A DNA stretch of 53,560 nt, from positions 1 through 53,560 of the IMG/VR virus record IMGVR_UViG_3300007765_000007, one strand, 5' to 3'. Every line of letters starts with the position of its first letter. The first letter of the stretch is position 1. The notes beneath the pieces were generated by a model that did no database searches, was not told where the DNA came from, and saw nothing but the letters and a program-made list of their open reading frames with translations. Both the position numbers and the translations under genes were made by a program. The DNA is from a virus (taxonomy: Duplodnaviria > Caudoviricetes). Positions 1 to 48,365 of the stretch are shown in pieces.

Positions 1-146
1 TTTATAACTTTAACCTTTATAGGTACTTTGAAAAGTTTTTGTAAATATGGTTTTAATTTTCTTGCGTATTTTGGATATTGTGCCCATTCTTCTTTTGAAA
101 TTTTTTCAAGTAAGGATTCGTTTAATATTTTTTTTAACTTAATCAT
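1..146 (-). CDS. Partial hypothetical protein, putative head-internal protein (runs off the window)
   Basis: Not in the ORF track. ATG at 146 overlaps the upstream stop (ATGA). Translates MIKLKKILNESLLEKISKEEWAQYPKY..., open to the window edge, with the same leader as 143..598. Confidence 0.75.
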   Translation of the reverse strand, partial: MIKLKKILNESLLEKISKEEWAQYPKYARKLKPYLQKLFKVPIKVKVI

Positions 147-598
147 TTTAAAAGTGTCCAATCTGTAGGTTTACCATATTTTGCTTTATAATACCATTTC
201 TTATCTTTCATACTAAAAATATAAGCAAACTCTTCACCACTATGAAATTTTACTGCATCTCTATTCTTCCACTTACTTGTAGCATTACTTTTCTCTCCTC
301 TATCTCTACCATAAAATACAGTTTCACCTTTTTTTGGACTATCAAATGAATGGTCTTTTCCACCCTTCATACTTTTATCAATAGAAGAAATACCTTGTTG
401 TCCAAGTTTTAATAGTTGTTTAACTTTCATTGGATTATTATAAAATCTTTTTAAATATTTCCCTGCCCATTCTGGATAACCATCCCAATGTCCGTAAGTA
501 CTTACTATTTGTCCATTAGGTGATTCAATACCAACTAACCATCTTGTACCTTCAATAATTAATCCACTCTCTTTTATTATATCTTTTAATTTAATCAT
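143..598 (-). CDS. Conserved phage protein with YxHWDGYP motif and MIKLK leader
   Basis: GTRWLVG...YGHWDGYPEWAGKYL and EEFAYIF...WY motifs. N-terminal extension MIKLKDIIKESGLIIE. Confidence 0.7.
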   Translation of the reverse strand: MIKLKDIIKESGLIIEGTRWLVGIESPNGQIVSTYGHWDGYPEWAGKYLKRFYNNPMKVKQLLKLGQQGISSIDKSMKGGKDHSFDSPKKGETVFYGRDRGEKSNATSKWKNRDAVKFHSGEEFAYIFSMKDKKWYYKAKYGKPTDWTLLK

Positions 599-32716: not shown

Positions 32717-33492
32717 TCTCTTTTATAAATTATTGGATGATTTCCATTACCACTAAAATCAAATGCCTTATATGGTGTAGTGGTTTTAAAATTAGTAAAT
32801 GCTAATGGTCTCATCTTTTCAAAATTATATACTTGTCTTTTATGTGCATTTGATCTAAAATATTTTGGAATACCTTTAAACTCGTGATACTCTTTATAAA
32901 ACTTATCTCTATCCTTTTCACTCAAAACGGAATTAAAAACTCCAAGACATCTAATATGACCATAATAAAATTGTGGTTCTGGACAAGATTCAAATGCATT
33001 TGCACAACCAACCCAAACATGAGAACCTGAATAATCAATTATCTCTCCATCGAGTTTTGAAACTTGAGTATCCCAAACTTGTCCTTCTTCTCTCATAGAA
33101 AAAATCATCATTGATTTTTCTCTATTATAAGATATAATTATATCTATCCAACCATCTCCAAATACTCTCTTTTCCAATAATGCAATTTTTACTCCACCCT
33201 TTGGTGTATCATACCATATCTCACCTTTAATAAATTTTAACCACCCATCTCCTGTTTCTGTTGGCCAAAGTACATTAAATAGTCCAGAATGTCTTCCATT
33301 TCTAACTAAAATTCCACCTCGATATCCTTTATCATCAATATTTAAAGTTAACTTATCAGGATTCCACTCTGGCTTTACACTCGTACAGAATGTCCAATCC
33401 CCTGTATTAATAGATTCAACAACCTTACCACTAATATTATGTTTATTAGTATAACTAATAACCCAACCATGTGTACCATCAAGTGTAATCAT
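32701..33492 (-). CDS. LamG/concanavalin-like jellyroll protein
   Basis: LDG...WVG...YYGHI...FNSVLS...DFSGNGNH signature. Confidence 0.7.
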   Translation of the reverse strand: MITLDGTHGWVISYTNKHNISGKVVESINTGDWTFCTSVKPEWNPDKLTLNIDDKGYRGGILVRNGRHSGLFNVLWPTETGDGWLKFIKGEIWYDTPKGGVKIALLEKRVFGDGWIDIIISYNREKSMMIFSMREEGQVWDTQVSKLDGEIIDYSGSHVWVGCANAFESCPEPQFYYGHIRCLGVFNSVLSEKDRDKFYKEYHEFKGIPKYFRSNAHKRQVYNFEKMRPLAFTNFKTTTPYKAFDFSGNGNHPIIYKREWGVY

Positions 33493-34925
33493 AATTTCAT
33501 CTCCAAACTTCTATGATAAAAATCAGCTAACTCAGGAAATGTTTTACAAAAATCTGTTCCTCTTCGTTTGTCATGTTCTTTAAAAAACTTACCAAAATTA
33601 AATCTATGTTCTTTAACTTGTTGTTCTTTACCTTCCCAGTTTGCAATTCTCCAATCATATATTCTTTTAATTTTTTGTATCTCAATATCTGAATACCCAA
33701 CATAATTATGATCAAACAATGGTACTCCATAATAATCAACCAACTGAGCATGTTTCAATATGTAAGAATTCCACTCATCAGGTAATACTTGAACGGTTTG
33801 GTGTGTTGGATATCGTAAATAACTTGAATCCAAAAATACTGCAGATTTCCAATATCTATCTGCTGAACCAAACTTTGTTTTTAAATCATACATACCTTTA
33901 ATTAATTTATGATAATTTGGAACTGAAAGTGCATTGTAAGTTGCCATATTAGTTACATTTACTTTAGAAGAACTTTCCAAAATTCTATTTACATTATCCC
34001 AGAAATAATTAAAATCTAATCCATGTCTAATATATTCTGCTTGTTCTCCCCAAGACTCAACTGAAGTAAACACAATAAATTCTCTAACTCTTTCTTCATC
34101 TTCTATTCTTTTAATCTTATCAATAAATTTATCAATCAATACTTTCGGACCTCCCAAATTAGTATTTACAGCAAATTGTAAATTTTTATTTGGATTAGGA
34201 TGGTCTATAATGTAATCCAATACTTTAAAAGTATCGTTTGCTAATAATGGTTCTCCGCCTGTTATTCTAAATGTGTGTAAATCTTGATACAAATCAGGCC
34301 ACCATTTCCAAAATGCCTCTTTATAAGGATTTGTCTCACGATGTGGAATGGGCATTTTATCTTCAATTTTATTATACTTAAAATCATTAAAGTGATCAGT
34401 TGTTGGATAACCACCATGTTGTTCTATCTCTTGAAACCACTCTGAAGAATAAGCAGGTGCACAATAACTACATTTAAAATTACAAGCGTTTGAAAATGCA
34501 ACCTCTACATATCTTGGATTAAAATCTTCTCTCCAATCTAATTTTTTTATCTCATCATAATGTGGTAATGACCAACTCTCTTGTGATTTAAAAACTCTAT
34601 CAGAAAATCTATCTGAATTATCTTCTACATTCCAACAATAATCACACTCTTTAGGTCTTCCACCCTGTAGCATTTCTTTTCGTCTTTTCTTTTTAAATAT
34701 AGTATTGTGTAGAGCACTCGGATTTCTCTTTAATTCCTCTAAAGGAATTTTATGTGTTTTTGGATGGTGGCAACTATGAGTGTGCCCTGTTTGTAATTGT
34801 ATTGTAACTTGAGTCCACTTTGCTAAACACATCCCACATCCAATATCATCAAGTTTCTTTTTTGTTTTTACAAAATGTTGATTTTCTATTGAAAGTTCAT
34901 TTTTTTCTTTGACTGCTTCTGACAC
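33489..34925 (-). CDS. Radical SAM protein with N-terminal Twitch-like Cys cluster
   Basis: CLAKW...SCHH...CDYCW, CNFKCSYC, TGGEPL, NTNLG. Confidence 0.9.
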   Translation of the reverse strand: MSEAVKEKNELSIENQHFVKTKKKLDDIGCGMCLAKWTQVTIQLQTGHTHSCHHPKTHKIPLEELKRNPSALHNTIFKKKRRKEMLQGGRPKECDYCWNVEDNSDRFSDRVFKSQESWSLPHYDEIKKLDWREDFNPRYVEVAFSNACNFKCSYCAPAYSSEWFQEIEQHGGYPTTDHFNDFKYNKIEDKMPIPHRETNPYKEAFWKWWPDLYQDLHTFRITGGEPLLANDTFKVLDYIIDHPNPNKNLQFAVNTNLGGPKVLIDKFIDKIKRIEDEERVREFIVFTSVESWGEQAEYIRHGLDFNYFWDNVNRILESSSKVNVTNMATYNALSVPNYHKLIKGMYDLKTKFGSADRYWKSAVFLDSSYLRYPTHQTVQVLPDEWNSYILKHAQLVDYYGVPLFDHNYVGYSDIEIQKIKRIYDWRIANWEGKEQQVKEHRFNFGKFFKEHDKRRGTDFCKTFPELADFYHRSLEMKL

Positions 34926-36346
34926 TAAAACCTCACATTAATTAACTTATGTCTATTATAAATATCATCTTTAGATACTATTTTGTATTTCATTTCACTT
35001 AACCCATTTTCTTCTATATTAACTTTTTCTTTTTGCATTTCTTTCTTATAAAATATTTCATTTACAGAAGTTTGTTCAGGGTCTCCTGCAAAACTCTGAT
35101 TAACTATTCCCTCATCATCATGATACATACATTCCATTGTTCCATATCTTCTATCGGGTGTAATTGTTTTTGCTATCTGTACATTATCTTTGGTAATTCT
35201 TCCGTTACCAAGTATTAATTCACCATGATTTTCATTACCACTTAAATCTAATAATGTATCTCTTCTCCAAGACTTACTCATATCATAATGTAATACTAAT
35301 TCTTTTCTATCATTCCACATCTTTATAGAATACATCTTACCTTTAAATGGACGATTTCTATCTCTCATTGGATCATATTTATTTGGTGGATTCTTACCAA
35401 TATAAAATGGTGTTGTTCCATACCGTTTCAATTTTCCCTCAAATGGTAATACCGATTTTTGGGGGCCAAATTTCTCATCATACAACTCATCATTAATAGT
35501 AATTGTTCTCTCTTGTGTTCGTGTATCAACTTTGAAATTAACTTTACTCCATTGATTTGGATATCTCATCATCCAACCATAATTTAATTCATTTTTAACT
35601 CCCCATAAACAATAAGAAAATGCTTTAGAGTTATTATACGATATATCGAAATCCCAACCTTTTCTGGATACTATTGGATATTTTAAATGTCCTACTTCAT
35701 TACCAATTAAAAATTCTTTATCTTCACTTTCTATTTCTGAATGTACAATTGCTTCTATCTCACAAGATTTATTTGGTATGTTCATTATACTATTTGAAAT
35801 TGGAACTTTAATATGGGTTTCCTCACCATCAAATTGTAAAACTTTTGTATTTCCTGGTGATTCAATATATTCTGATTTAAAATATCCTTTTCTTATACAT
35901 CTCCAAAACAAATCATCATCTTCAAATCCCCAACCCCAATAATCTGCTGAATATCCGTTAACTTTTTCAAATTGTTCTATAGTGAATAAAACTACTCCAC
36001 CAAAATAATGTATATCTCTTAATGTATTATCCCATTGTGATAACCAAGTTGCAATATGTTTAGGTGTATCACCAGGATGAGAATAATCACAATCATCTTG
36101 TGGTAACATATCTACATCGTGAAATGCCACATAATCACATCCATCTTCTTTAGCAGCAAGAAATGCAACATTCTTCGTACCACTTCGGTTAAACTTCTTT
36201 TCATCAACTTGGTGTCCTATGTACACTCTGAAGTCTATATTCCTATCGCCAAGGAACTTTTCTAAATGTGGTACTAATGTATCTAAGTGTTTCTTTCTTA
36301 CACCATCTCCATTATCTCTATATGGAATACAAACTCCTAACTTCAT
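34925..36346 (-). CDS. GT7 (beta-1,4-galactosyltransferase-like) with inserted LamG domain
   Basis: IPYRD, FNRS, FHDVDMLP, YFGGV, VNGYS..YWGWGFEDDDL, then LamG (DLSGNENHG), then the GT7 tail NGLSEMKY. Confidence 0.88.
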   Translation of the reverse strand: MKLGVCIPYRDNGDGVRKKHLDTLVPHLEKFLGDRNIDFRVYIGHQVDEKKFNRSGTKNVAFLAAKEDGCDYVAFHDVDMLPQDDCDYSHPGDTPKHIATWLSQWDNTLRDIHYFGGVVLFTIEQFEKVNGYSADYWGWGFEDDDLFWRCIRKGYFKSEYIESPGNTKVLQFDGEETHIKVPISNSIMNIPNKSCEIEAIVHSEIESEDKEFLIGNEVGHLKYPIVSRKGWDFDISYNNSKAFSYCLWGVKNELNYGWMMRYPNQWSKVNFKVDTRTQERTITINDELYDEKFGPQKSVLPFEGKLKRYGTTPFYIGKNPPNKYDPMRDRNRPFKGKMYSIKMWNDRKELVLHYDMSKSWRRDTLLDLSGNENHGELILGNGRITKDNVQIAKTITPDRRYGTMECMYHDDEGIVNQSFAGDPEQTSVNEIFYKKEMQKEKVNIEENGLSEMKYKIVSKDDIYNRHKLINVRF

Positions 36347-37194
36347 AATTCATCAAACCCCTTTAAATTTTCTCTGTATGTATTATAAAATCTTATATTA
36401 TGCATCGACCAAGGTTGAAAGAATTGATAAAAATGTTGTGCTATTACACCATCTTCTTTATACTCATTTTCATCATAGTATGGTTTTATCAACTCTTCAT
36501 ATTCCCATTCTAATTCATTTGCTCTTTCATAAACATTCAACCACTTATCACCAAGTTCTTTCCATTTTTCTATAAACTTTACATTTATTATTGCCTGTTC
36601 TTCTAATAAATCATGTATTACTAAATCTAAATCAATATAATATTCATTATGTAACTCTATTAACTCCTCAAATATTACTTCACTTACCATATCACTATGA
36701 AATAACATAAAACAAGTTTGAAAGGATGGCACCGACATCCAATTCTCTCTCATCCAATCATATTTTTTCAATTGTTTTTTATTAAATTTTTCTAATTGTG
36801 GTTCTCTATATTCAAACTGATAACAAAGTGGTGTATAATTTGAATCGTTTGCATACATTACATCTTTTTTTCTATTATTTAAATCTAAATCAATTTCATT
36901 AAAAAATATAACATCTAAATCACAATAAAAAATCCAATCCCATTTTTTAAAATATTCTGTCCACATATAATATTTGTAATAATGTGGTCTTGGATTTCCA
37001 GGCAATGTTTCACCATAAAAAAACTTAACACCTTTATCAGTAAATTCTTTCTCATCAAACTCACCTTTATCTGATTCAGGCATTATCAATACAAAATCAC
37101 CATCCCACTTTCCTACGGTGATTGCACCAAACAACAAACTTTTATAATGTTGTAAATAATTTTTATCAGCTAATGCTACGAAAACATTTTTCAT
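36343..37194 (-). CDS. GT8-like glycosyltransferase
   Basis: ADKNYL, IFYCDLDVIF (DxD), EQAIIN, QHF...PW. Confidence 0.75.
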   Translation of the reverse strand: MKNVFVALADKNYLQHYKSLLFGAITVGKWDGDFVLIMPESDKGEFDEKEFTDKGVKFFYGETLPGNPRPHYYKYYMWTEYFKKWDWIFYCDLDVIFFNEIDLDLNNRKKDVMYANDSNYTPLCYQFEYREPQLEKFNKKQLKKYDWMRENWMSVPSFQTCFMLFHSDMVSEVIFEELIELHNEYYIDLDLVIHDLLEEQAIINVKFIEKWKELGDKWLNVYERANELEWEYEELIKPYYDENEYKEDGVIAQHFYQFFQPWSMHNIRFYNTYRENLKGFDEL

Positions 37195-37802
37195 TTAAAA
37201 CTCTTTACTAAATAACCAACCATTAAATCCTCAACAGGAAAACTTTCACTCATTCTTTTTGCAAAATTTTCCTGTTCACCTATAAATATACTTAACTCCT
37301 TAGAAACCATGTAAAATTTTCCCTCAAAGAAATGAAAGTATGTATCAATAAAATCTAAATTATATTCATATCCCTCACCATAGTGATTATCAAAATATAT
37401 CTTAAATTCATCTGGTGATACTCTGATATAATTCAATCCCCAATAATGTTTATTATCATCCTCATCAACCACACTCCAACTCTTATCACCCCATCTATCA
37501 CAAGTATATCGATAACCATCTCTTTCTTTTCCTAATCTTGATTTATAGAAATCCCAAGTATCATTAAAAATAGTATCATCACATTTTATTAAATAATCAT
37601 ACTCTTTATTCTCACTACACCACTTCATCATTTCTTGAGTTTTAGATGGTAGTTTATTATACTCTGTATGATAATCTGCACCCCATTCTATAACCTCTAT
37701 ATTTGGATTATCAGATATCTCTTTATAGAACTCTTGTTTCTTAAAATAATCTAAGTGTTCTTTATATTGTGAATCAGTATATATTACGAAAAGATATTTC
37801 AT
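37191..37802 (-). CDS. GT31-like (beta-1,3-galactosyltransferase-like) protein
   Basis: YNKLPSKT...YDYLIKCDD...GKFYMVS...VEDLMVG. Start adjusted to ATG 37802. Confidence 0.65.
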   Translation of the reverse strand: MKYLFVIYTDSQYKEHLDYFKKQEFYKEISDNPNIEVIEWGADYHTEYNKLPSKTQEMMKWCSENKEYDYLIKCDDTIFNDTWDFYKSRLGKERDGYRYTCDRWGDKSWSVVDEDDNKHYWGLNYIRVSPDEFKIYFDNHYGEGYEYNLDFIDTYFHFFEGKFYMVSKELSIFIGEQENFAKRMSESFPVEDLMVGYLVKSFK

Positions 37803-38394
37803 CTTCCTCACTCCATATACTTGTGTATAAATGTAACCCATATGCATCACCATCATATGTAAAAATATCTTTATAGGATTGCCATACTACTGGACAAAAA
37901 TATTCTTTAGGTAACACATACTCTTGATATTCATATTGTTCAACCAATGGTGTTAACAAGTTTGGCCCTAAATCTCCATGTGTAGATTCTTCACCAATTC
38001 TTCTTATACGATTAGCCCAATCTTTAAAAATTTGTTTTCTACTATGTTCACTATAAATAATACAACTTGCAACATGATAATCCCAACCAGTATCGAATTG
38101 TTCTGAAAATACAAATCGTTTATTAAAATCATATGGTTTCAAACATAACATATCCAAATCAACATACAAACCACCTCGTTGATATAAAAGTTCTGCTCTA
38201 AACAAATTAGAGAATGCTATAGGTGTTCCCTTTGAATGACCATGTTTATAAGTAAAATATTCATCGGTAGAAATTATTTCATCACAATTACTCTCATTCC
38301 ATAACTTAAATTCATAACCATTCTTTTCCCATGAATCAATACACCTTTGTTGTACTTCACCTATTTCACCAAACCAAAAACCATTTACAATCAT
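37774..38394 (-). CDS. GT32-like DxD glycosyltransferase
   Basis: CIDSW, FSNLFRAELLYQRGGLYVDLD, GPNLLT. Confidence 0.8.
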   Translation of the reverse strand: MIVNGFWFGEIGEVQQRCIDSWEKNGYEFKLWNESNCDEIISTDEYFTYKHGHSKGTPIAFSNLFRAELLYQRGGLYVDLDMLCLKPYDFNKRFVFSEQFDTGWDYHVASCIIYSEHSRKQIFKDWANRIRRIGEESTHGDLGPNLLTPLVEQYEYQEYVLPKEYFCPVVWQSYKDIFTYDGDAYGLHLYTSIWSEEDEISFRNIY

Positions 38395-39356
38395 ATAATC
38401 CCCAAATGTTTTAATACCGATGTTTGTTGTTTATATGCCCATTCATGAAATGATATTGGTTTTTCTTTCCATTTCATTTTATCTAAATCATAGTAATTGT
38501 GTTTCATCTTATTTGCAAGTGGAAAAGAAGCACCATAGATATAAGAAAATTCTAAAACTTTATTATCCATAATATCAAATTTAATATTTGGTGCATTTAA
38601 TTTTTTTTGAATAGTAATTAATTTCTGAATAAATTCATCTGAAAAATCTGTAGGTTCTATATCTTTTACTAAAGGTTTTTCTCCTCTTCCCACCCAATGT
38701 TCTTTATTGATATTTTTTATATGTGGGAATGAATTTGGTTCTTCAAAATATGTATTAGTTTTTTGTTTGAAACCATACAATTGATTATCAGATATAAAGA
38801 TTTGATATTCATATTCTACCTCTATGTAATCTTGTACTAAACATGGAAAGAAGTCTTCCCAATTATAACATTCTGAAATAAATTTTTGTATATCTTTTAA
38901 ATGTTCTGGTTTCCACATAAAAAAAGAACTTTCAGTACCAGCACCATATGTTGATTTTACTACTTTATTTAATGGAAAGGTCTGTATTAACCCTTTTATA
39001 TTATTACAAACCACACTCGGTGCATGTATATCGAATTTTTTTAATAACTCATATTGTCTTACTTTATTATCATAGTAATAATATGATTTTTTATTTGGCC
39101 ACATTTTTTCACCATAATGATTATATAATTTATCAAAACATTTAGAGTGAAGTTTTTTATCAGGTAAAGCATGTGCGAATCTACCTATATAGAATTCACC
39201 ATCATAATTTTCATAATCTATTAATTTATAACTTATATTTTTTGATTTAAATAAATCTTCAAACTTTTCACAATAGAATTTATTTAATGTATTTTGTTGT
39301 TTATTTAAACCATCTGGTATATGATAAATTGAATTATCTTTATGTAATGCAACCAT
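38391..39356 (-). CDS. ATP-grasp ligase-like protein (RimK-like)
   Basis: DNKVRQY, VVKSTYGAG, LVQDYI, KFD...VLE. Confidence 0.65.
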   Translation of the reverse strand: MVALHKDNSIYHIPDGLNKQQNTLNKFYCEKFEDLFKSKNISYKLIDYENYDGEFYIGRFAHALPDKKLHSKCFDKLYNHYGEKMWPNKKSYYYYDNKVRQYELLKKFDIHAPSVVCNNIKGLIQTFPLNKVVKSTYGAGTESSFFMWKPEHLKDIQKFISECYNWEDFFPCLVQDYIEVEYEYQIFISDNQLYGFKQKTNTYFEEPNSFPHIKNINKEHWVGRGEKPLVKDIEPTDFSDEFIQKLITIQKKLNAPNIKFDIMDNKVLEFSYIYGASFPLANKMKHNYYDLDKMKWKEKPISFHEWAYKQQTSVLKHLGII

Positions 39357-40288
39357 TAACCCTCGACTAAAATATTATTCACAAAATGATATCCTGCTAA
39401 TGTGTGTGGATGAACTACATCTACATCTGATTCAAGTGATTTAATTTCTTCTATCTTAACAATAGGTTTTCTTGTAAATCCATTATCATTTACAATAAGT
39501 TCATCACCTACTTGTAGGGCTCCTAAATTATCTTCTAATATTGCACCATCTCGATAAAATGGAATTAAGTGAGTAGATGTATATAATATATGATTATCAT
39601 CCGTTGATATTTTTAAAATTATTCCACCAGTATTATTCCCTGTCATTATAGAAGTAACTTGTGTATATATTATTTCTTCTGTATCTATCAATGCAGATTT
39701 TATGATATCTCCCACTTTAACTATTGAAATATCAATTTCTCCACTTTGTTCTTGTACTTTCATCTCAATTAATTCTTCAGTTCCACCAATAACAGCAGAA
39801 CTATTATGTGTTACTATATCATCCGCAATAATTGTTTCGTAATCTTGGTTTACTAAATTGTAAGTTTCGTGTTCTCCTTCGATATGAATTATATTCACAA
39901 CCTCTATCCAAGTAGAATCAATATCATTTACATAATCACCAACTTCAAGTTTTCCACTACCACCAGCATGATTTGGATTATGTCCATCTATTGTAACCCA
40001 ATCTTTATTTCTTTCAATAAAAGGATGGTTACCTGTTGGATACAAAATTTTTCCATTTTCTAAATGTAATTCATAAACATCATCATGTAATACTTTTTTG
40101 ATTTCATTTACTTTACCATTTCTGATTTCATCATACTCTTCATCCCAAACTAAAACCGAATCGTTTAGGTTTATTTCAGAAATTGGTTTCAATGTACCAT
40201 CTGACATATTTATTAATTGTTTTGGCAAAAAACAATCTGGGTTTACCATTTTAAATTTTGTATCAGTTTTCCAAATTAATTTTTTCAT
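39356..40288 (-). CDS. Tandem Hint-domain protein (mini-intein followed by a second Hint fold)
   Basis: CFLPKQLINMSDG...PTGNHPF...TYNL...IVTHN-S, then SAVIGGT...VKVGD...TSTH...LQVGD...HFVNNILVEG. Confidence 0.85.
   Translation of the reverse strand: MKKLIWKTDTKFKMVNPDCFLPKQLINMSDGTLKPISEINLNDSVLVWDEEYDEIRNGKVNEIKKVLHDDVYELHLENGKILYPTGNHPFIERNKDWVTIDGHNPNHAGGSGKLEVGDYVNDIDSTWIEVVNIIHIEGEHETYNLVNQDYETIIADDIVTHNSSAVIGGTEELIEMKVQEQSGEIDISIVKVGDIIKSALIDTEEIIYTQVTSIMTGNNTGGIILKISTDDNHILYTSTHLIPFYRDGAILEDNLGALQVGDELIVNDNGFTRKPIVKIEEIKSLESDVDVVHPHTLAGYHFVNNILVEG
39803..40234 (-). other. Mini-intein/Hint domain (144 aa, Cys19-Asn162) followed by Ser
   Basis: All canonical splicing residues are present: Cys1, block B TxxH, terminal His-Asn and Ser+1. 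No endonuclease domain. Confidence 0.8.
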
Positions 40289-40305
40289 AGTTTTCTCCTA
40301 TATTT

Positions 40306-40313
40306 ATAAATAT
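40306..40313 (-). promoter_or_regulatory. ATATTTAT motif within the palindrome ATATTTATAAATAT (40300-40313), putative promoter of the long modification operon
   Basis: Sits directly upstream of the AGGAG RBS of the tandem-Hint gene. Confidence 0.55.
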
Positions 40314-41740
40314 CATAAATCCAAGTTTACAGATAAAAATATATAATTATTATCTTCCGTTTTTGATATTGTTTTATACTTTAATGTAGTTAATCCATCA
40401 GAAATTAGATTGGATTTATTATTTAGAATTTGATCATAATATCTGATTTGATTTAATCTTGTTGATTCGTATTTCCATCCACCTTGACCATAACCTTCTT
40501 CATTGTGTTCCATCATTTCAAATGTAGAATCTCTTCTTGCAGGTAATGATATTTTCTGTTGTTCTAATTCATTATGAAGTCTTGGTATACAATTATATAT
40601 AGTACCATAAATTCTTGGATGAACTAAATCCATAACACTTCCTTTAGAATAATCATATGAATTATTAAATTTAGAATGTTTAAAATCGTAATATATTTTT
40701 AAATTATTAGAACTACTATATTGATTATCATCATTTAAAAAACTCATACCAGAATTTTGATACAATCCTTGAATTTCATTTCTCTGTAATGTTTTATCCC
40801 AATAGGCAAAATCACTTACATATCCACGAAAACTTTTTCTATCATCTTCTCTTTCAACTGATGCTATACCAATATAGAAATTTTCTTGACCAGAATTAAA
40901 TATTTTTCTTGTTATTATTTTATTTCCAACCAACTTACCATCTTGATACATTTTTAACCTACGATTTGATTTATCATAAGTTACGGTAATTTTTGTTAAT
41001 CTTGGATAACTATAATCGGAAGTGATTTGATGACACTCTTTACCAATATCCCAACACTCAAATTTATAACGATTAAATGAATTATAACATATCGTTGTAT
41101 CCCAACCTGGAATACTAAATACGCAATATTCATCAAACGACTTATCATAATCAGGAATTATTTCATCTGGTTTAAAAGTACAATGAATAGTAAAATCTTC
41201 ATGAATATTAATTGTATTTTTACATTCTATATAACTTTCATCTCCATGTATATATAAACCTGAAGTATTTTCTTTTGGTATTTCATAAATATCAAAATCA
41301 GTAAATACATTTTGTTCAGTTAACCGTAAAAGTAAATCATCATCTTCAAATCCCCAGCCCCAATATTCATTTGAGTATCCATTTACTCGTTTGAATAATT
41401 CAACTGGAAATAAAGTTACTCCACCAAAGTATGTATCAAATACTTCTCTTTTGGAATTGGTAAAGTTTGTTGCAAGATGTAATGGAACTTCTGAATAAGA
41501 ATAATCCACATCAATTGGCAGCATATCAACATCGTGAAACGCAACATAATCACATTGTTTTCTTAATGCGGTTTTAAAACCAATATTTAATAATTTACCT
41601 CGATTAAAAGGCAAATCATCATTTTGTTCAACTACAATTAAATCATAATCATAGTCTTTTAAATACTCTGATATAGATTCACGAAACTTTCGAAGATGTG
41701 TTGGCCTGTTACGATACGGGACAATTACACCAAGTTTCAT
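40313..41740 (-). CDS. GT7 (beta-1,4-galactosyltransferase-like) with inserted LamG domain
   Basis: VPYRNR, FNRGKLLNIGF, FHDVDMLP, YWGWGFEDDDL, LamG segment, GT7 tail DGLTTLKY. Paralog of 34925..36346. Confidence 0.9.
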   Translation of the reverse strand: MKLGVIVPYRNRPTHLRKFRESISEYLKDYDYDLIVVEQNDDLPFNRGKLLNIGFKTALRKQCDYVAFHDVDMLPIDVDYSYSEVPLHLATNFTNSKREVFDTYFGGVTLFPVELFKRVNGYSNEYWGWGFEDDDLLLRLTEQNVFTDFDIYEIPKENTSGLYIHGDESYIECKNTINIHEDFTIHCTFKPDEIIPDYDKSFDEYCVFSIPGWDTTICYNSFNRYKFECWDIGKECHQITSDYSYPRLTKITVTYDKSNRRLKMYQDGKLVGNKIITRKIFNSGQENFYIGIASVEREDDRKSFRGYVSDFAYWDKTLQRNEIQGLYQNSGMSFLNDDNQYSSSNNLKIYYDFKHSKFNNSYDYSKGSVMDLVHPRIYGTIYNCIPRLHNELEQQKISLPARRDSTFEMMEHNEEGYGQGGWKYESTRLNQIRYYDQILNNKSNLISDGLTTLKYKTISKTEDNNYIFLSVNLDL

Positions 41741-41940
41741 TATTTTTTCTCTTTTTCTTCTACATATTTAGAGTAATACTCTGCTAAATACCATTGAAGT
41801 CTATCACTCCACTCAGTTTTCTCGATTTCTTCGAACCAAATCGTTAGAGCATCTAAAACATTAGCAATCTTTTCTAATGCTTTTACTTTTCGCTCTTCTA
41901 AGAGTAGTGAATCATCTGGTGTTTTTGCTTTAGTAGCCAT
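41740..41940 (-). CDS. Small hypothetical protein
   Basis: AAGGAG RBS, TAATG coupling to the GT7 gene. Confidence 0.7.
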   Translation of the reverse strand: MATKAKTPDDSLLLEERKVKALEKIANVLDALTIWFEEIEKTEWSDRLQWYLAEYYSKYVEEKEKK

Positions 41941-41972
41941 ATTATAACTCCTTATTGTTATATAACTTTATA

Positions 41973-41980
41973 ATAAATAT
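41973..41980 (-). promoter_or_regulatory. ATATTTAT motif, putative late promoter
   Basis: Lies in the 42-nt spacer upstream of 41940. Confidence 0.55.
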
Positions 41981-41982
41981 CA

Positions 41983-42831
41983 TCATAAATCCTTAATCTT
42001 CAATATTTTTTTAGTAAGAATTTTCCATTTTCTATACTGTGAATAATTTGGTGTTTCTATTCTTTCAAACATAAATTCTCTTTCATTTAAATCAATTGTA
42101 TAATCTCTATCTTTAATTGATTTTAACATTTTTTTATATTCATGTGCAAATGTATAATTTGCCATTGATTTACTGACTTCTTTCAATCTCTGTAATACCG
42201 TATAATCCCATTTAAAATGATGTACTTGTGTAAAATTCTTTTCTACTGGATACCTTAATGGATGTGATTTTCCCCATGAAGTTTTTCCTCTTCCCAAATC
42301 AATAAAATGTTGTCCTGGAACTACATTGTGTTTTCCTTTTAATAATGTAACTTTATTTGCTTCTGCTCTACTCAATGGATAACGAAAGAATCCAGCGTTT
42401 GGCATTTCTTTCCATACATTACTTTCTTTTGTAATCACTGGAAACTCTCCATCTTCACCAATTCTATCAAGAAATCCACCTGTTACAAATTCCCAATTAT
42501 TTTCTTCACACTCATCTATAATTTCTTCTATTGGTTTAGAATATAATTGTAATTCATCATCATCTGCAACTATCCACCAATCATCTGGTTTTAAAGATGT
42601 GGTTTCATTATAGTGTGATGTAACCTTATGCCAATTGAATGGTTCTTCTATTGCAACTTTATATGGTTTTAAATTAAATTCATCCAATATAGAAGTTGTC
42701 TCTTCTATAATTGGATCATTCCACCATGTGGCATAAATTATTACAAAAAAATCATTGACAATTGGTTTATAATGTTGTAACATATGATGTAACATTGTGG
42801 TATTGTGGCCACATACCGTAACTAAATTCAT
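41983..42831 (-). CDS. GT2-like glycosyltransferase
   Basis: HMLQHY, DWWIVADDDEL, PGQH, VHHFKW. Confidence 0.7.
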   Translation of the reverse strand: MNLVTVCGHNTTMLHHMLQHYKPIVNDFFVIIYATWWNDPIIEETTSILDEFNLKPYKVAIEEPFNWHKVTSHYNETTSLKPDDWWIVADDDELQLYSKPIEEIIDECEENNWEFVTGGFLDRIGEDGEFPVITKESNVWKEMPNAGFFRYPLSRAEANKVTLLKGKHNVVPGQHFIDLGRGKTSWGKSHPLRYPVEKNFTQVHHFKWDYTVLQRLKEVSKSMANYTFAHEYKKMLKSIKDRDYTIDLNEREFMFERIETPNYSQYRKWKILTKKILKIKDL

Positions 42832-43553
42832 TTTTTCCTCACTATTGTTAATCCTGTAGAACTTGGGAAATCTTTTCGAATTCCATGATTAAAAAAATTA
42901 ATAACTTCAAATTTATCTTTATCTATAGTTTCAATAAATTGACTCGGCCCATTTAAAGTATCACCTTTATGGCCTTCAATTTCTACGAAATTATCCACAT
43001 AATTTTTATCTGTATCGTGTATTGTAATAATACCATTTGGCATCAATTTTTCTGAATACAATTCAAAATCCTTTTCCACTCCCTCTAAAGTGTGGTCAGC
43101 ATCTATATGAATTAAATCAAACCAAATATCTTGTTTTACAAAATGATTATAGTATGCCTCTTCCGTAGTTTCTTTTATAAACTTTGGTGTAAAATGTTTT
43201 CTAAATAAACTATTTTTATCTTCCCAATCAACCTCACCATTAAAACCATTACACGCATCAACCACATAAGTTGTTCCACTATCACCCCATTCCATTTGAA
43301 TATCTTTATAAAATCCCTCTTGTGCTAAATCATATCTAGCTTGACTCATTATTCTCGGAATATATCCACCACCACTTCCTAAACAAACTAATGTTTTTAA
43401 TTTAAAAAAATTAATTAAAGTGTAAATGATTAAACCATCACCGAGATGCATCCATGTTGCGCCATGAGTCCAACGATAAGGTACTTCATCTTCACCTGCA
43501 TTCGTTGTTATATAATTTTTTATATAATCATAATTTAATATTGAATCTTCCAT
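42828..43553 (-). CDS. Class I SAM-dependent methyltransferase (Methyltransf_24-like)
   Basis: LVCLGSGGG, DLIHIDADHTLEGVEKDF, GIITIHDT. Confidence 0.85.
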   Translation of the reverse strand: MEDSILNYDYIKNYITTNAGEDEVPYRWTHGATWMHLGDGLIIYTLINFFKLKTLVCLGSGGGYIPRIMSQARYDLAQEGFYKDIQMEWGDSGTTYVVDACNGFNGEVDWEDKNSLFRKHFTPKFIKETTEEAYYNHFVKQDIWFDLIHIDADHTLEGVEKDFELYSEKLMPNGIITIHDTDKNYVDNFVEIEGHKGDTLNGPSQFIETIDKDKFEVINFFNHGIRKDFPSSTGLTIVRKK

Positions 43554-43571
43554 AAAACCTTTATATTATTA

Positions 43572-44609
43572 TTAGAATGGATTCGAATTACTTCCTTTAT
43601 TATGTACCAAAAATGTTTTACCAAAATAAACATCCAATGGTTCTACATCAATCTGTACTACTTCGTATCCCTCATCATTATCAATTAAATTTTCTAATGA
43701 TGTAATCTCAACTTCATTTCCATTCTTATCCATTACATGAGCACCAACTTTCATATTTGGAACTAATTGCCACATCCAAGTATTTTCATTTATTGGTTTA
43801 TATAACATTTCATGTTCACCTGTAATTTTTTCCATTCCATCATTTATATTCCAATAATTATATGCAAAATCAAAATTAATATCTTGAACACTTGCTGAAT
43901 GTTGTGTAAATGTTTCTGTTTTCTCATCAGCAAATCTACAACTTCTCCAATCATCATTATCCTCATCAAGTTGTCCTGGCATATTCATGGACATAACCCA
44001 ATCACCTATTTCTAAATCTTCTACAAGTTTAGTAGTACCATCTGCCATTTCAATTGGTGTTCCCTCTAATAAACAACTTGGTGAACCACCATAACTATCA
44101 ACAACCGTTACTGACTTAGTTAAATTAGAATTATAATTTGTTGCGTGATCATTATATCCATCTGATTGTCCGTCTTCAAGAAATTTACCAGTTAAAGTAA
44201 CACTTGCATTATTTGTTCCTGCTGCAAACCAATCACTATCATCACCTGTACCAGTATTTGCATTTGATATTGCACCTGCAGTTAATGTACAAGTATAATC
44301 ACCTGCTACTGAAGTAACTCCACTATTTTCACTCCAAGCAAAATTTGCATCTCTATTTGCAATCTTACTTAAAAATAAACTTCCATTATTTGAAAAATTC
44401 ATCGTATAGGTTTCTGCAGTTTGTTCCCATAAATAAGTATATCCTGTAACACTATCTACAGAACTTATTGAAAAATCCGACATTTTAGTTTGACTTGAAC
44501 CATCATTTTGAGCACCCAAAGAAGTATTGGTAGTCGTATATGAATCAGTTCCATCTACTGCTCTCTTTAATTTTCCTAATGATAAGTTTTGTCCTGATGC
44601 TGTTGACAT
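43572..44609 (-). CDS. Putative virion fibre-tip protein with C-terminal Hint domain
   Basis: Ser/Thr/Asn-rich N-region with LSLGKL...KMSDF. Hint at 44075-43599: CLLEGTPIEMADG...TGEH...FLVHN, then KGSNSNPF. Confidence 0.8.
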   Translation of the reverse strand: MSTASGQNLSLGKLKRAVDGTDSYTTTNTSLGAQNDGSSQTKMSDFSISSVDSVTGYTYLWEQTAETYTMNFSNNGSLFLSKIANRDANFAWSENSGVTSVAGDYTCTLTAGAISNANTGTGDDSDWFAAGTNNASVTLTGKFLEDGQSDGYNDHATNYNSNLTKSVTVVDSYGGSPSCLLEGTPIEMADGTTKLVEDLEIGDWVMSMNMPGQLDEDNDDWRSCRFADEKTETFTQHSASVQDINFDFAYNYWNINDGMEKITGEHEMLYKPINENTWMWQLVPNMKVGAHVMDKNGNEVEITSLENLIDNDEGYEVVQIDVEPLDVYFGKTFLVHNKGSNSNPF

Positions 44610-44641: not shown

Positions 44642-45804
44642 CAATTGTTGTAAAGTTTTAACATTTTTTCTATCCATTCTTCTTTATTGTCGAATTTATT
44701 AGTTAAATATTCTCTAAGTGGCCATAATAAGTTTCTTCTACCATCAAGTGATACTTCACATAACTTATTATATTGTTCTCTAAACTCTATAGGATTAGAA
44801 GCTCTAAATGGATATTCATATTCTGTTAACCAATCACCTGCTAATATTGGAACTTTACCATAATCTATTGCCTGAAATATACTATATCCAAATGGTTCAA
44901 CAATATGAGCAGAATGACTTATACCCCAATCTCTATGATAAAATCTATCTATATTATCATACTTGAATGTAAATATTTTCCACTTTGAAGTATCAGTTCC
45001 TATATTTCTTCTCCACCATTTAACATCTTTCGGGTCTGTAAAAAACTCACTATCAATACCTGCAAGAAAATGTGGACATTTACGAGTTTCACATCGAGAA
45101 GCAAATCCTACCGTATTATTATCTGTAACATCATAATTATGTTTAAATTCATAAAAATTTGGTATATGTAATATTTTATCATTATGTTCATTATCTAAGT
45201 TAGGTTTATCCACACCAATCCAAAATGAATTTTTAGCATATCCTACTATTTCAGTTTCCCAATTAGGCGACATAGCAAAATTGAACCCAGTTTTTAAACC
45301 TAAAAGAAATGGTGCTTTTAAAGCACTACTAACATTACAATGAACGGCATTTGTATATATCTTATCTTTATTATCTCTTATATATCTATGTGGATGATAG
45401 TAACCATGTAGTATATGTATTCTACGAGCCCCATTTAAAATCTCACCAAACTCTTCTGGATCATCACCTTGCCAATAATGTTTTAATTCTGTTTTTAAAA
45501 CATCTTTATAAGTTCGTTTCTTTTTATCAAAAGTTTCCTTAAAAGTACTTTTTAAATTTTTATGAACTTGTCTACCATTATTTCCTGATTCACCTCTATC
45601 AACTCTTTTTTTAAAATCTTTGTGTTGTTCTTCAGTCCAGTCAACTATAGGTTTGTTTCTATGTATCATTAATTTTGGAACAACTTTAAGTTTTGGTGCA
45701 ATCTCTTCTATCCAATGATTCACCCAAACATCAGCACCACCACCAACTAAACTTCCACCTCCTGTGGAATAGTATACATCGTATTCTTTATTTGTCGTGG
45801 ACAT
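44641..45804 (-). CDS. GT-B fold glycosyltransferase (GT4-like)
   Basis: GGADVWV near the N-terminus, GFASR..RK, EPFGYSIFQAIDYGKVPI. Start adjusted to ATG 45804. Confidence 0.75.
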   Translation of the reverse strand: MSTTNKEYDVYYSTGGGSLVGGGADVWVNHWIEEIAPKLKVVPKLMIHRNKPIVDWTEEQHKDFKKRVDRGESGNNGRQVHKNLKSTFKETFDKKKRTYKDVLKTELKHYWQGDDPEEFGEILNGARRIHILHGYYHPHRYIRDNKDKIYTNAVHCNVSSALKAPFLLGLKTGFNFAMSPNWETEIVGYAKNSFWIGVDKPNLDNEHNDKILHIPNFYEFKHNYDVTDNNTVGFASRCETRKCPHFLAGIDSEFFTDPKDVKWWRRNIGTDTSKWKIFTFKYDNIDRFYHRDWGISHSAHIVEPFGYSIFQAIDYGKVPILAGDWLTEYEYPFRASNPIEFREQYNKLCEVSLDGRRNLLWPLREYLTNKFDNKEEWIEKMLKLYNN

Positions 45805-47104
45805 TATGTACCAATACTCCCCCTGCAAAATAAACATCATTTGGTTCAACATTTAAATTTACCGTTTCTAATTCTTCTTCTATCTTTTCTATACTTGTTA
45901 TTGTTTCAAAAACAAAACTACCAGATGTATCAGTAAGAATTTCATCTCCAGGAATTAATTCTTCTGTCTTTTTAAATTCATACTTATTATTATGTTTTAT
46001 AAAAAATGGATGTTCAAATGTAACTTTTATTCTGTCATTAATTTTATAATATTCATCATACCAATCAAACGTAATATCAGTTAATTTAGTAGTTGTATAT
46101 TCTGCCCCATCAAGTGTATCAGTTTCCCAATCTACCCAAGTATCTTTATCATCAAAATCTAATGGCATAGTTGGTAAAGTTAATGTTAATACCTCTTCAC
46201 CAATACTTAAATCTTCTATTCTTTTCGTATAACCATCTGCCATAGTTATCGGTGTATCTACTGAAAAACATCCACTTCCACCATATGCATCAATCGTAGA
46301 ACTAAAGAATTCATCAAACCTAATCGGGTGTGGAGAATCAGTTGCATAAAGTGGGCCTACTCCATACCAATCAAAATTCTTTTTCGATGCTCTTGCAACA
46401 GTATTGAATGCTTGATATAAATCATGAATATCATTATTTCCTTGAGAATCCCCATTTTCAGTTCTAATTGAATCTACATCTATATTATTAGCATAACCAA
46501 TTGTAGGAACTATTAGTGAACCTGATCCTGGGCCCGCAAGAGTAATTGTAGTATATGATCCAGGAGTTCTTATTTCACTTCTCTGTACATTATATACTGA
46601 AGCACCATTTGGAGCTGCAGGATATGAACCAGCAGCAATAGTATATTGTCCAGATGATGAAACTTCTGGTGGAAATGTTCTCCATCCAGTTACTCCACTA
46701 AAATAAGATGGGCCTCCACCTGTTTGTGATGTATAAGTTAAAACTTGTAAATATCCCCATCCATCATAAAAACAAAATTTATTATTAGTAGTGGTTACTG
46801 ATGCATTAGTATATACTGTAGTAGCACCATAATTAACAGCCTGTGGATATGTTGTACTATAAAGAGTAGTTATTGCTGAACCAATTGGTTCATATGACCA
46901 ACTACCACTTGAATAATTTGCTCCACCTGCAGTAACACTAACACCAGTTAATTTACCATCTGGATTGGATGTCCAAGTACCTGTAAATCCACTTCCTTGT
47001 CCTGGATCACTTGCAGTTAAAGGTCCAGATGTATCCGTAGCATATCCATCACCTCCTTCAAGAAGAGTTAATCCCGTTATACTGAATCCACTATTTAGAG
47101 CCAT
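45788..47104 (-). CDS. Putative virion fibre/adhesin protein with C-terminal Hint domain
   Basis: Gly/Ser/Thr-rich N-region. Hint at 46270-45803: CFSVDTPITMADG...TFEHPF...VLVHN, then VHDK. Confidence 0.82.
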   Translation of the reverse strand: MALNSGFSITGLTLLEGGDGYATDTSGPLTASDPGQGSGFTGTWTSNPDGKLTGVSVTAGGANYSSGSWSYEPIGSAITTLYSTTYPQAVNYGATTVYTNASVTTTNNKFCFYDGWGYLQVLTYTSQTGGGPSYFSGVTGWRTFPPEVSSSGQYTIAAGSYPAAPNGASVYNVQRSEIRTPGSYTTITLAGPGSGSLIVPTIGYANNIDVDSIRTENGDSQGNNDIHDLYQAFNTVARASKKNFDWYGVGPLYATDSPHPIRFDEFFSSTIDAYGGSGCFSVDTPITMADGYTKRIEDLSIGEEVLTLTLPTMPLDFDDKDTWVDWETDTLDGAEYTTTKLTDITFDWYDEYYKINDRIKVTFEHPFFIKHNNKYEFKKTEELIPGDEILTDTSGSFVFETITSIEKIEEELETVNLNVEPNDVYFAGGVLVHNVHDK

Positions 47105-47519
47105 TTTCCAACTCTTCCACTCGTTTGGTTAATTCTTTAATACTCTCAACCAACAAAGGTACAACTTTTTCATATGCAATTGCCTTAATACCATCTGGTC
47201 TCAACACAACTACTTCAGGTAAAACCTTTTCAACTTCTTGTGCAATCAATCCTACATCATGTCCTTTATCTTGTTGAATCTTACTTGACTTTTCATTCCA
47301 ATCAAATGTAACTCCGTTAATTTGTTGAACTTTAAAAAGGGCACTTTCTATTGGTCTGATATTATCTTTAAGATTTATATCTGAACTATAGTATGCAGTA
47401 ATATTATTTGTACAATATATTTGTCCAGTTACCTTTAATTCTATTGAAGGATTACCTGTAGCTCCAATATGTACATTTTCACTTGTTTCTAAGTAACTCC
47501 CTTGATCTGTAAACGCCAT
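47091..47519 (-). CDS. Peptidase S74 intramolecular-chaperone domain protein
   Basis: ITAYYS-SDINLKDNI, GVTFDW, VGLIAQEVEKVLPEVV, LLVESIKELTKRVEELE. Confidence 0.9.
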   Translation of the reverse strand: MAFTDQGSYLETSENVHIGATGNPSIELKVTGQIYCTNNITAYYSSDINLKDNIRPIESALFKVQQINGVTFDWNEKSSKIQQDKGHDVGLIAQEVEKVLPEVVVLRPDGIKAIAYEKVVPLLVESIKELTKRVEELENGSK

Positions 47520-47531
47520 TTCTTAATCTCC

Positions 47532-48338
47532 TTAAATTTGTATGTGGATACTTGATCCATCACCACCTGTCTGTGCACCTCCTGTTGTTCCAGCATCTGG
47601 AGCATCTGCATCATTCGTACCAGATCCACCATCTGCACCAACAGTTCCTGTAACAGTAATTGTTCCTACACTGGACGAAGTTGTAATTATTACTACAGCA
47701 CCACCAGAACCACCTCCTCCGCCTCCGCCAGCACCACTATAATATTCTTCCGGATCAATTGTCATTGCCCCTGATCCACCATCACCACCATCAGCTGATG
47801 TTGATGTTACGATACAATTATTAACAGTTGCATCTACACTTGAATCATACATCTGTGGATGAACATCTGCGCCAGATCCTGCATTTGGTGTCCATCCCTG
47901 CTGAGCGGTTACTCCTGTTGCATCCGAAGAAACTGCACCACCACCGCCTCCGCCTCCTGCGGATCCGCATACTTTTAATCGTACGGCAGTATCTGATGCG
48001 TCCATAACATCTCTCATCATTATAACAAGATGGGGATCAATTACCTCTAATCGAGATACTGCACTTGCTCCACTACCTGCACCACCTGCACCTCCAGGTG
48101 ATCCATATGCTGGAGCCATTCTAAACATAGTGTTTGATATCCATCGTGGTGGTTTAATTTCTGTATTATCATCTCTAATACAATCTATATGTACTTTATA
48201 TTTTTCATCAAACAAAATATTCTTATCTATAGAGATAACTTCTCGTGTTTCTATTTTTTGTTTTTGATTATCAATAGTAATACTTTTAGGTATTATTTTA
48301 CCGTTACCGTATACTTCTCCTCTGTCTCTTTTAATCAT
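47532..48338 (-). CDS. Glycine-rich tail-associated protein
   Basis: GGGGGGSGGAVVII motif shared with the C-terminus of the upstream giant protein. AGGAG RBS. Confidence 0.7.
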   Translation of the reverse strand: MIKRDRGEVYGNGKIIPKSITIDNQKQKIETREVISIDKNILFDEKYKVHIDCIRDDNTEIKPPRWISNTMFRMAPAYGSPGGAGGAGSGASAVSRLEVIDPHLVIMMRDVMDASDTAVRLKVCGSAGGGGGGGAVSSDATGVTAQQGWTPNAGSGADVHPQMYDSSVDATVNNCIVTSTSADGGDGGSGAMTIDPEEYYSGAGGGGGGGSGGAVVIITTSSSVGTITVTGTVGADGGSGTNDADAPDAGTTGGAQTGGDGSSIHIQI

Positions 48339-48365
48339 TTCATTCTCCTAATATTAACTTGCAAC

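Follow-up and report, generated by a model that had tools for sequence, protein, structure and literature searches.

The viral record IMGVR_UViG_3300007765_000007 (Duplodnaviria; Caudoviricetes), analyzed here as a window of 53,560 bases that comprises the whole of this IMG/VR record (estimated completeness, 34%), carries a gene for a 310-amino-acid protein in which a short N-terminal peptide is followed by two Hint domains in succession. The sequence indicates that the true host protein is a small one, made up of the N-peptide and a Hint domain without a terminal asparagine, and that a mini-intein has been inserted into it exactly at the N-terminal scissile junction of the Hint, before Hint residue 1 (Ser1). 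That intein is dispensable and mobile, a guest with a history separate from that of its host. An earlier note on this DNA had placed the open reading frame (ORF) at 39356..40288 and had described it as an intein whose C-extein is itself a Hint domain; the position holds, and the gene lies on the minus strand, as do all other features of the window for which coordinates are given below.

The precursor gene (310 codons plus stop) is preceded by a putative ribosome-binding site read from the sequence (AGGAGA, 40294..40299), which lies 5 nucleotides before the ATG at 40288. Its first 18 residues (MKKLIWKTDTKFKMVNPD; 40235..40288) form the N-peptide, which would serve as the N-extein and is disordered in both AlphaFold2 (AF2) models. 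Residues 19 to 162 (144 amino acids; 39803..40234) constitute a predicted class-1 mini-intein without an endonuclease domain, marked by Cys19, T85-G-N-H88, and His161-Asn162, and the next residue, Ser163 (39800..39802), is the candidate +1 nucleophile. The host Hint spans residues 164 to 310 (39359..39799), with Ser164 as its residue 1; it opens with S-A-V-I-G-G-T, contains the block B motif T237-S-T-H240 (39569..39580), whose Thr and His are invariant in 12/12 host Hints including the split forms described below, and closes with NNILVEG directly before the stop, so that its end (...GYHFVNNILVEG) has no His-Asn. All of the motifs named in the earlier note were found, among them also TGNH at residues 85 to 88, SSAVIGGT, VKVGD, TSTH at residues 237 to 240, and LQVGD. 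That note had further described the first half as a complete mini-intein, the C-extein as a Hint fold lacking the terminal Asn, and a conventional host enzyme as absent, and each of these descriptions is borne out, the second by Pfam scores and structure matches alike. BLASTP between the two halves detected no similarity (E = 1.6), so they are not a recent duplication, and a recent tandem duplication of one Hint was rejected as a candidate origin.

The separation of guest from host is seen in relatives of the gene. A word-indexed search returned 32 relatives, and the tandem-Hint homologs with a conserved N-peptide that the earlier note had called for are among them: 10 clusters align over 100% of the query (44 to 92% identity) and have in common the N-peptide pattern, a His-Asn/Ser junction, and an unvarying C terminus, GY-x-FVNNILVEG. 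Scanning of metagenomes yielded 19 loci, of which 18 were analyzed after one 1.2-kb fragment was dropped. The intein is carried by 15/18 of these loci and is missing from the other three, which are otherwise collinear with the intein-bearing alleles. One of the intein-less alleles, the 179-amino-acid protein P0100 (locus L070), was found on 4 contigs and has MKKLIWKENRRYKWNLVP fused straight to SAVISGTE..., ending with ...FVNNILVEG; the two others (L075 and L077) represent a second lineage, and in all three the N-peptide is joined to S-A-[VA]. At the other extreme, P0008 contains two tandem inteins with one Ser between them, so the number of inteins ranges from 0 to 2. No frameshifts or stops were present in the 18 loci.

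Intein and host also differ in their phylogenetic affinities. The host Hints of L086 and P0003 are 84 to 85% identical to that of the window and their inteins 65 to 68% identical, whereas the same two inteins are 90 to 91% identical to an intein of an unrelated poly-Hint protein of about 895 amino acids with four Hints (L001). Inteins that are 99% identical reside in hosts that are 58% identical (L079 and L085), and the corresponding values for L080 and L072 are 88% and 49%. Synonymous divergence can likewise be unequal between the two halves of a single pair, for example, 0.20 versus 0.03 between the window and L084. In a tree of 25 inteins, those from the N-peptide-Hint host fall into more than one group; 5 host changes are required on the best tree, and their monophyly was rejected by the approximately unbiased (AU) test (p-AU = 1.2e-14). 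The earlier note had treated the intein and the second Hint as one two-step relay, an idea that is not supported, the intein being dispensable (L070, L075, and L077), doubled in P0008, and swapped between unrelated host genes.

The same type of intein is distributed well beyond this host. An exhaustive search of representatives gave 1174 matches at E <= 1e-3, and among the best 150 nearly all aligned with the intein half only, P0100 being the notable exception. When the protein was compared by tblastn with 50,697 phage records, 10 records matched, all below 60% identity and none with a coverage of at least 80%; these, too, involved only the intein half (residues 18 to 167) and lay mostly in helicase genes of Vibrio phages. 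Further carriers include a tail-collar-like protein, Gly-rich proteins, and a protein with the MopE motif, among others, and none of these inteins has an endonuclease domain. Several proteins (P0034, with 700 amino acids, P0036, P0040, and P0044) consist almost wholly of head-to-tail inteins with linkers of 0 to 2 residues; at one junction of this kind, ...VVHN is followed directly by CFMPGT..., such that Cys1 of one unit would be the +1 residue of the preceding unit. A second host family, on the viral contigs L001 to L041, has an N-terminal domain of about 380 amino acids without a Pfam match, followed by two, three, or four tandem Hints (for example, L005:2681-5362, L041:1980-3773, and L031:4625-6886). 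Its last Hint also lacks the Asn (...FANKVLVSDESDT, then stop), and the extra unit in the four-Hint forms is of the window's intein type.

The first half of the protein would qualify as a class-1 mini-intein on every feature that could be checked in sequences and models: the Hint fold, a nucleophile at position 1, the block B T-x-x-H, His-Asn, a nucleophilic +1 residue, and a host gene that also occurs intein-less. NCBIfam intein_Nterm matches residues 19 to 90 with 27.0 bits (cutoff, 24.5). Foldseek comparison of the whole-protein AF2 model with known structures found BIL2, the top match, and DnaB mini-inteins at E values of about 1e-8, and the matches to DnaB, gp41-1, and RecA inteins range from 1e-8 to 1e-5. 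T85, H88, H161, and N162 are invariant across 13 aligned sequences. A +1 nucleophile, either Ser/Thr or the host's own Ser1, is present in 15/15 intein-bearing loci; the position of Ser163 is occupied by Ser or Thr in the majority of relatives and is missing in P0003, L076, and L086, where the host Ser1 takes the +1 place. The phage intein thus shares with the Ssp and Npu DnaB and gp41-1 mini-inteins the Hint fold, Cys1, block B, His-Asn, and Ser at +1, as well as the existence of intein-less host alleles and insertion at the most conserved residue of the host. It is unlike them in that its host is another Hint with an 18-residue N-extein rather than a replication or repair enzyme, that it has no homing endonuclease, and that its type is spread over many unrelated and poorly conserved phage proteins as well as head-to-tail arrays with linkers of 0 to 2 residues.

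The second half was recognized as a Hint by two profiles, with residues 178 to 307 scoring 32.8 bits against Pfam Hint (cutoff, 29.7) and 28.7 bits against PT-HINT (cutoff, 27.7). The intein-less P0100 provides a view of the host by itself. Its AF2 model (predicted local distance difference test [pLDDT] score, 75.8; predicted template modeling score, 0.75) consists of disordered residues 1 to 19 and a Hint fold, and all 30 chains that match it with a Z score of at least 8 are Hint folds. VIA-align superimposed the model on the Hedgehog structure 1at0 with a Z score of 19.5 and a root mean square deviation of 2.0 over 139 residues and on NpuDnaB with a Z score of 19.0, in which Ser19 falls on intein residue 1. 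By Foldseek, its matches were BIL2 (1.2e-8), a BIL domain of C. thermocellum, and Hedgehog, and a profile of 12 host Hints matched PolII inteins (5e-5), the C. thermocellum BIL domain (1.4e-4), BIL2, and Hedgehog (0.04). All 12 host Hints agree in Ser1, in the Thr and His of block B, and in the C-terminal strand, and the last two residues vary across the wider family (EG versus HD). Across the family the N-peptide has 16 to 20 residues, is basic, and follows the pattern M-K-x-[LVI]-[IT]-W-[KR]-x-[DN]-x-[KR]-[FIY]-x-[ML] with 2 to 5 additional variable residues. Searches with P0100 for a host Hint fused to a larger N-terminal domain yielded nothing but fragments and forms with an intein.

With a nucleophile and T-x-x-H in place, no terminal Asn, and nothing downstream, the host Hint could at most carry out the first step of Hint chemistry. 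Hedgehog is described in PMC7664689 as using this first acyl-shift step alone, for the transfer of cholesterol, and the host Hint resembles the Hedgehog Hog/Hint domain in its fold (1at0 is the best structural match), its N-terminal nucleophile, T-x-x-H, and the lack of a terminal Asn. It differs in that the phage equivalent of the "Hedge" part is merely 16 to 20 residues long, in its phage setting, and in a sequence likeness that is marginal (profile E value, 0.04). BIL domains, including BIL2, are the top Foldseek matches of both phage models. The BIL2 domain of Tetrahymena BUBL passes its N-terminal ubiquitin-like partner to a lysine without ATP (PMC8616854), which is the kind of transfer that the earlier note proposed; a Hint that activates an N-terminal partner for transfer has precedents in Hedgehog and in BUBL (PMC7664689 and PMC8616854). 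BIL2 keeps its C-terminal Asn whereas the host Hint does not, and the phage host has no ubiquitin-like domain. Type B BIL domains are marked by type-specific sequence motifs and by intein motifs other than that at the C terminus; in the host Hint, block B is present and the C-terminal motif is missing (the protein ends with VEG), which by itself does not place it in that type.

The gene directly downstream encodes a 321-amino-acid protein (38391..39356) that may be a RimK-like ATP-grasp enzyme, its ATG sharing one base with the TAA of the Hint gene (TAATG). The putative ATP-grasp partner is coupled to the Hint gene throughout the family: a homolog starts 0 to 15 nucleotides after the Hint gene in 11/11 loci with enough downstream sequence, and with 7 truncated loci resolved by tblastn the count is 18/18, in addition to the window; the TAATG overlap is common. 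This linkage holds in all three intein-less loci and also where the upstream neighbors differ. Structures in the ESM Atlas gave template modeling scores of 0.68 to 0.74 to RimK clusters over the whole length, and K134, D261, and E269 appear by eye to be invariant in the partner family. This full-length alignment is the point of similarity with the RimK, R2K, and TTL types of ATP-grasp ligases, from which the family differs by Pfam scores below the cutoffs and by its coupling to a Hint protein, for which no counterpart was found in the literature. Peptide ligases of the R2K type occur in jumbo phages, as stated in PMC7824862. The predicted complex of the L070 partner with P0100 gave scores of 0.00, 0.69, and 0.02, which provide no verdict and are used neither for nor against binding. 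A Rosetta-stone fusion was rejected, as the N-terminal domain of about 380 amino acids in the poly-Hint family (A5) is unrelated to the ATP-grasp family (A3; hhalign probability, 0.7%). Side-chain cross-links of the graspetide type, made by the ATP-grasp in the N-peptide, were dropped as a candidate because the Thr, Asp, and Lys positions are not conserved among N-peptides.

Scanning viral contigs with the ATP-grasp profile identified 8 loci. In five of them (L089 to L092 and L094), where the ATP-grasp is 49% identical, the host Hint lies directly upstream as two genes and without an intein (for example, L089:2395-3000 and L092:1908-2498). The first, ORF-A (56 to 61 amino acids), comprises the N-peptide seen elsewhere in the family along with the Ser junction, some 30 residues of the Hint, and a tail rich in Lys. 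The second, ORF-B (134 amino acids), encodes the rest of the Hint, which keeps T-x-x-H and ends with ...ILLHD before the stop; it scores 30.0 bits against Pfam Hint positions 27 to 156 (cutoff, 29.7). A TAA stop and a GAGG site separate the two, each ORF has its own ribosome-binding site, and their net charges are opposite (+12 to +14 for ORF-A and -16 to -20 for ORF-B). About 30 Hint residues on the N-piece, a 134-residue C-piece, and opposite charges are reminiscent of naturally split inteins with a short N-fragment. The phage pair differs from these in having neither a C-extein nor a terminal Asn, so it could at most perform cleavage or transfer and not trans-splicing. At L093, the ORF immediately before an ATP-grasp of 40% identity (2267-2989; 240 amino acids) has ...SLLNEG in front of its stop, like the ...ILVEG of the family, and at L095 and L096 a tandem-Hint protein lies 1.6 kb upstream of the ATP-grasp.

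Selection on the intein is clearly purifying, with ratios of nonsynonymous to synonymous substitution rates (dN/dS) of 0.05 to 0.49 and a median of about 0.19 (10 pairs). An intein without an endonuclease can be selected only through the function of its host, and its constraint therefore argues that the host product matters.

Our preferred reading, to which we assign a probability of roughly 0.6, is that an autoprocessing N-peptide-Hint protein has been invaded at its own scissile junction by a mobile, endonuclease-free mini-intein, that its peptide is released or transferred, and that the ATP-grasp acts in the same pathway. The intein would first splice itself out, through a thioester at Cys19, transfer to Ser163, and cyclization of Asn162, restoring a host protein of 166 residues; it would do so as a guest and not as a designed first stage. 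The host Hint would then, as its fold and motifs suggest, catalyze an N-to-O acyl shift at the bond between the peptide and Ser164, and water or some other nucleophile would attack the resulting ester and liberate a basic peptide of about 19 residues. Finally, the translationally coupled ATP-grasp might act on the new carboxyl end of the peptide or on its acceptor, a role suggested by the gene linkage. Where Ser1 of the host is itself the +1 residue, the O-acyl-Ser that the intein would leave after cyclization is the same species as the activated ester of the host, which may make this site unusually tolerant of inteins.

Several observations weigh against this reading. Splicing, cleavage, and peptide release are all steps that we infer. 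The host Hint evolves rapidly (dN/dS, 0.13 to 1.45; median, 0.50; 11 pairs), and two close pairs, the window (39359-39799) with L084 and L072 with L073, have ratios above 1 (1.45 and 1.08), which could reflect either relaxed constraint or diversifying selection; by eye, the changes in these close pairs cluster in the domain's first half. The N-peptide, the least constrained of the three parts of the protein, has a pooled ratio of nonsynonymous to synonymous differences (pN/pS) of 0.85 over codons 2 to 14, with 0.29 to 0.92 for individual pairs, and thus no clear constraint at the codon level; only its physicochemical pattern and Trp6 are kept. Such weak constraint on host Hint and N-peptide argues against a tightly specified peptide, or for diversifying pressure. 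Among the domain assignments, Pfam Intein_splicing falls below its cutoff on residues 27 to 99 (31.9 versus 35.8), the pLDDT of the whole-protein AF2 model is only 66.9, and the 240-amino-acid ORF of L093 has no Hint match in Pfam despite its Hint-like end seen by eye. The partner matches ATP-grasp_3 in 8/10 family members at a best E value of 2.8e-4, which is below the cutoff; the window's own copy has no match in Pfam or NCBIfam, a family profile found nothing meaningful among PDB sequences (best E value, 1.2), and look-alikes in the ESM Atlas are a weak basis for its assignment. The 18 loci all belong to phages that are related and broadly syntenic, and part of the linkage to the ATP-grasp could therefore be a matter of inheritance. 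The host Hint also differs from Hedgehog by Ser in place of Cys and by the absence of the sterol/adduct-recognition region, the stop following the last Hint strand; the P0100 model aligns with 1at0 to its last residue (20..179 of 179), with nothing beyond the Hint. Without the adduct-recognition region and with a Ser nucleophile, the host Hint is not filed as a member of the Hedgehog family.

Foremost among the alternatives, doubtful as it is, stands a host Hint that is not an enzyme and serves as a scaffold or carrier, with the ATP-grasp modifying the N-peptide or the ...V-E-G end and the peptide never being released. Ligase-modified carriers of this kind are exemplified by RimK with S6 and LysX with LysW. 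The strict coupling of the gene to a RimK-like ATP-grasp, the invariant C-terminal strand, and the fast evolution of the middle of the Hint would all fit such a carrier. The retention of Ser1 and of the block B Thr and His in 12/12 host Hints, split forms among them, would be difficult to account for if the domain were not catalytic, however, and the two final residues that would be modified are not conserved in the wider family (EG versus HD).

An unlikely elaboration of the autoprocessing reading is a phage peptide-conjugation system resembling Hedgehog or BUBL. The Hint would turn the C terminus of the peptide into a Ser ester and transfer it to a nucleophile (a glycan, a lipid, or a protein) that the neighboring glycosyltransferase island makes or modifies, while the ATP-grasp would build the acceptor or seal the product. 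Inteins would accumulate at the junction since their O-acyl-Ser is the reactive species of the host, and the split form would be a tagger acting in trans.

It is improbable that both domains are parasitic parts of a selfish or decaying Hint-only gene without a host function, comparable to the poly-Hint arrays of the same metagenomes. That idea draws on the absence of a conventional extein, the existence of proteins made almost only of tandem Hints (P0034 and P0036), the two close host-Hint pairs with dN/dS of at least 1, and the N-peptide pN/pS of 0.85. It is contradicted by the low dN/dS of the intein (0.05 to 0.49), which lacks an endonuclease and so would be selected only via the function of the host, and by the absence of frameshifts and stops in the 18 loci. 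Moreover, gene, N-peptide pattern, and ATP-grasp persist where the ATP-grasp is 49% identical and in the form of a charge-complementary split pair.

The relay proposed in the earlier note, with the intein as a required first stage passing the 18-mer to the second Hint so that an external target is tagged, is very improbable: the architecture is kept in 15/18 loci, the intein is under purifying selection, and its +1 Ser adjoins or is the host Ser1, but the intein-less L070, L075, and L077 retain the same N-peptide, Hint, and ATP-grasp partner, as do the split forms without an intein, and both the variable number of inteins (0 to 2) and their separate history are at odds with an obligatory stage. 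Equally poor are the prospects of a BIL-like first Hint that merely cuts off the N-peptide and frees the second Hint without ligation, since, despite the occurrence of the same domain type in variable, nonconserved phage proteins and tandem arrays and the top structural match to BIL2, every family member encountered has a nucleophile, Ser, Thr, or Cys, at +1, directly after His-Asn. PMC7664689 describes BIL domains as being without a nucleophilic +1 residue and, for type A, as therefore mainly cleaving, whereas the inteins of this family have Ser/Thr at this position.

The window also contains genes for a portal protein and a large terminase, and its nearest phage records, Flavobacterium phage immuto (160 kb) and Microcystis phage Mel-JY01 (190 kb), share 66 to 67% nucleotide identity over the portal and terminase region. 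The Hint gene belongs to a long codirectional run with glycosyltransferase, methyltransferase, and radical-SAM genes, and a glycan-modification island (33489-43553) surrounds it. The island includes two paralogous genes for GT7 galactosyltransferase-like proteins (34925-36346 and 40313-41740, the latter with a LamG domain), a Gly_transf_sug gene (37774-38394), a Galactosyl_T gene (37191-37856), a Methyltransf_24 gene (42828-43553), and a radical-SAM-like gene whose score is below the cutoff (33489-34925).

There are four Hint domains in the window, spread over three genes. The second Hint-bearing gene (43572..44609; 345 amino acids) encodes a C-terminal Hint from Cys179 to ...LVHN with an 8-residue tail (KGSNSNPF), and the third (45788..47104; 438 amino acids) encodes one from Cys279 to ...LVHN with a 4-residue tail (VHDK). 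The N-terminal parts of both proteins are rich in Gly, Ser, and Thr, and the +1 residue is non-nucleophilic; by sequence, their Hints resemble BIL-type self-cleaving domains. Farther along, a 142-amino-acid protein with the self-cleaving endosialidase-chaperone domain Peptidase_S74 (47091-47519) adjoins a 1704-amino-acid ORF without a PHROG match (48366-53480), and this area (47091-53480) is likely a tail fiber region with a further autoprocessing module.

Searches of the literature turned up no account of a Hint serving as host to an intein, of inteins naturally arrayed head to tail, or of a Hint paired with an ATP-grasp. If the autoprocessing reading holds, the window provides an example of an intein hosted by another Hint and inserted at the scissile bond of that host. 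It would also point to a pool of endonuclease-free mini-inteins, closely related to one another, that move among unrelated phage genes, a matter relevant to the spread of inteins in the absence of homing endonucleases. Compact inteins that tolerate Ser at +1 and minimal exteins, together with a Hint that is naturally split and has a short N-piece, would be of potential use in protein engineering. The pair of peptide-Hint protein and ATP-grasp, if real, would represent a new module for the processing of small peptides in large marine phages.

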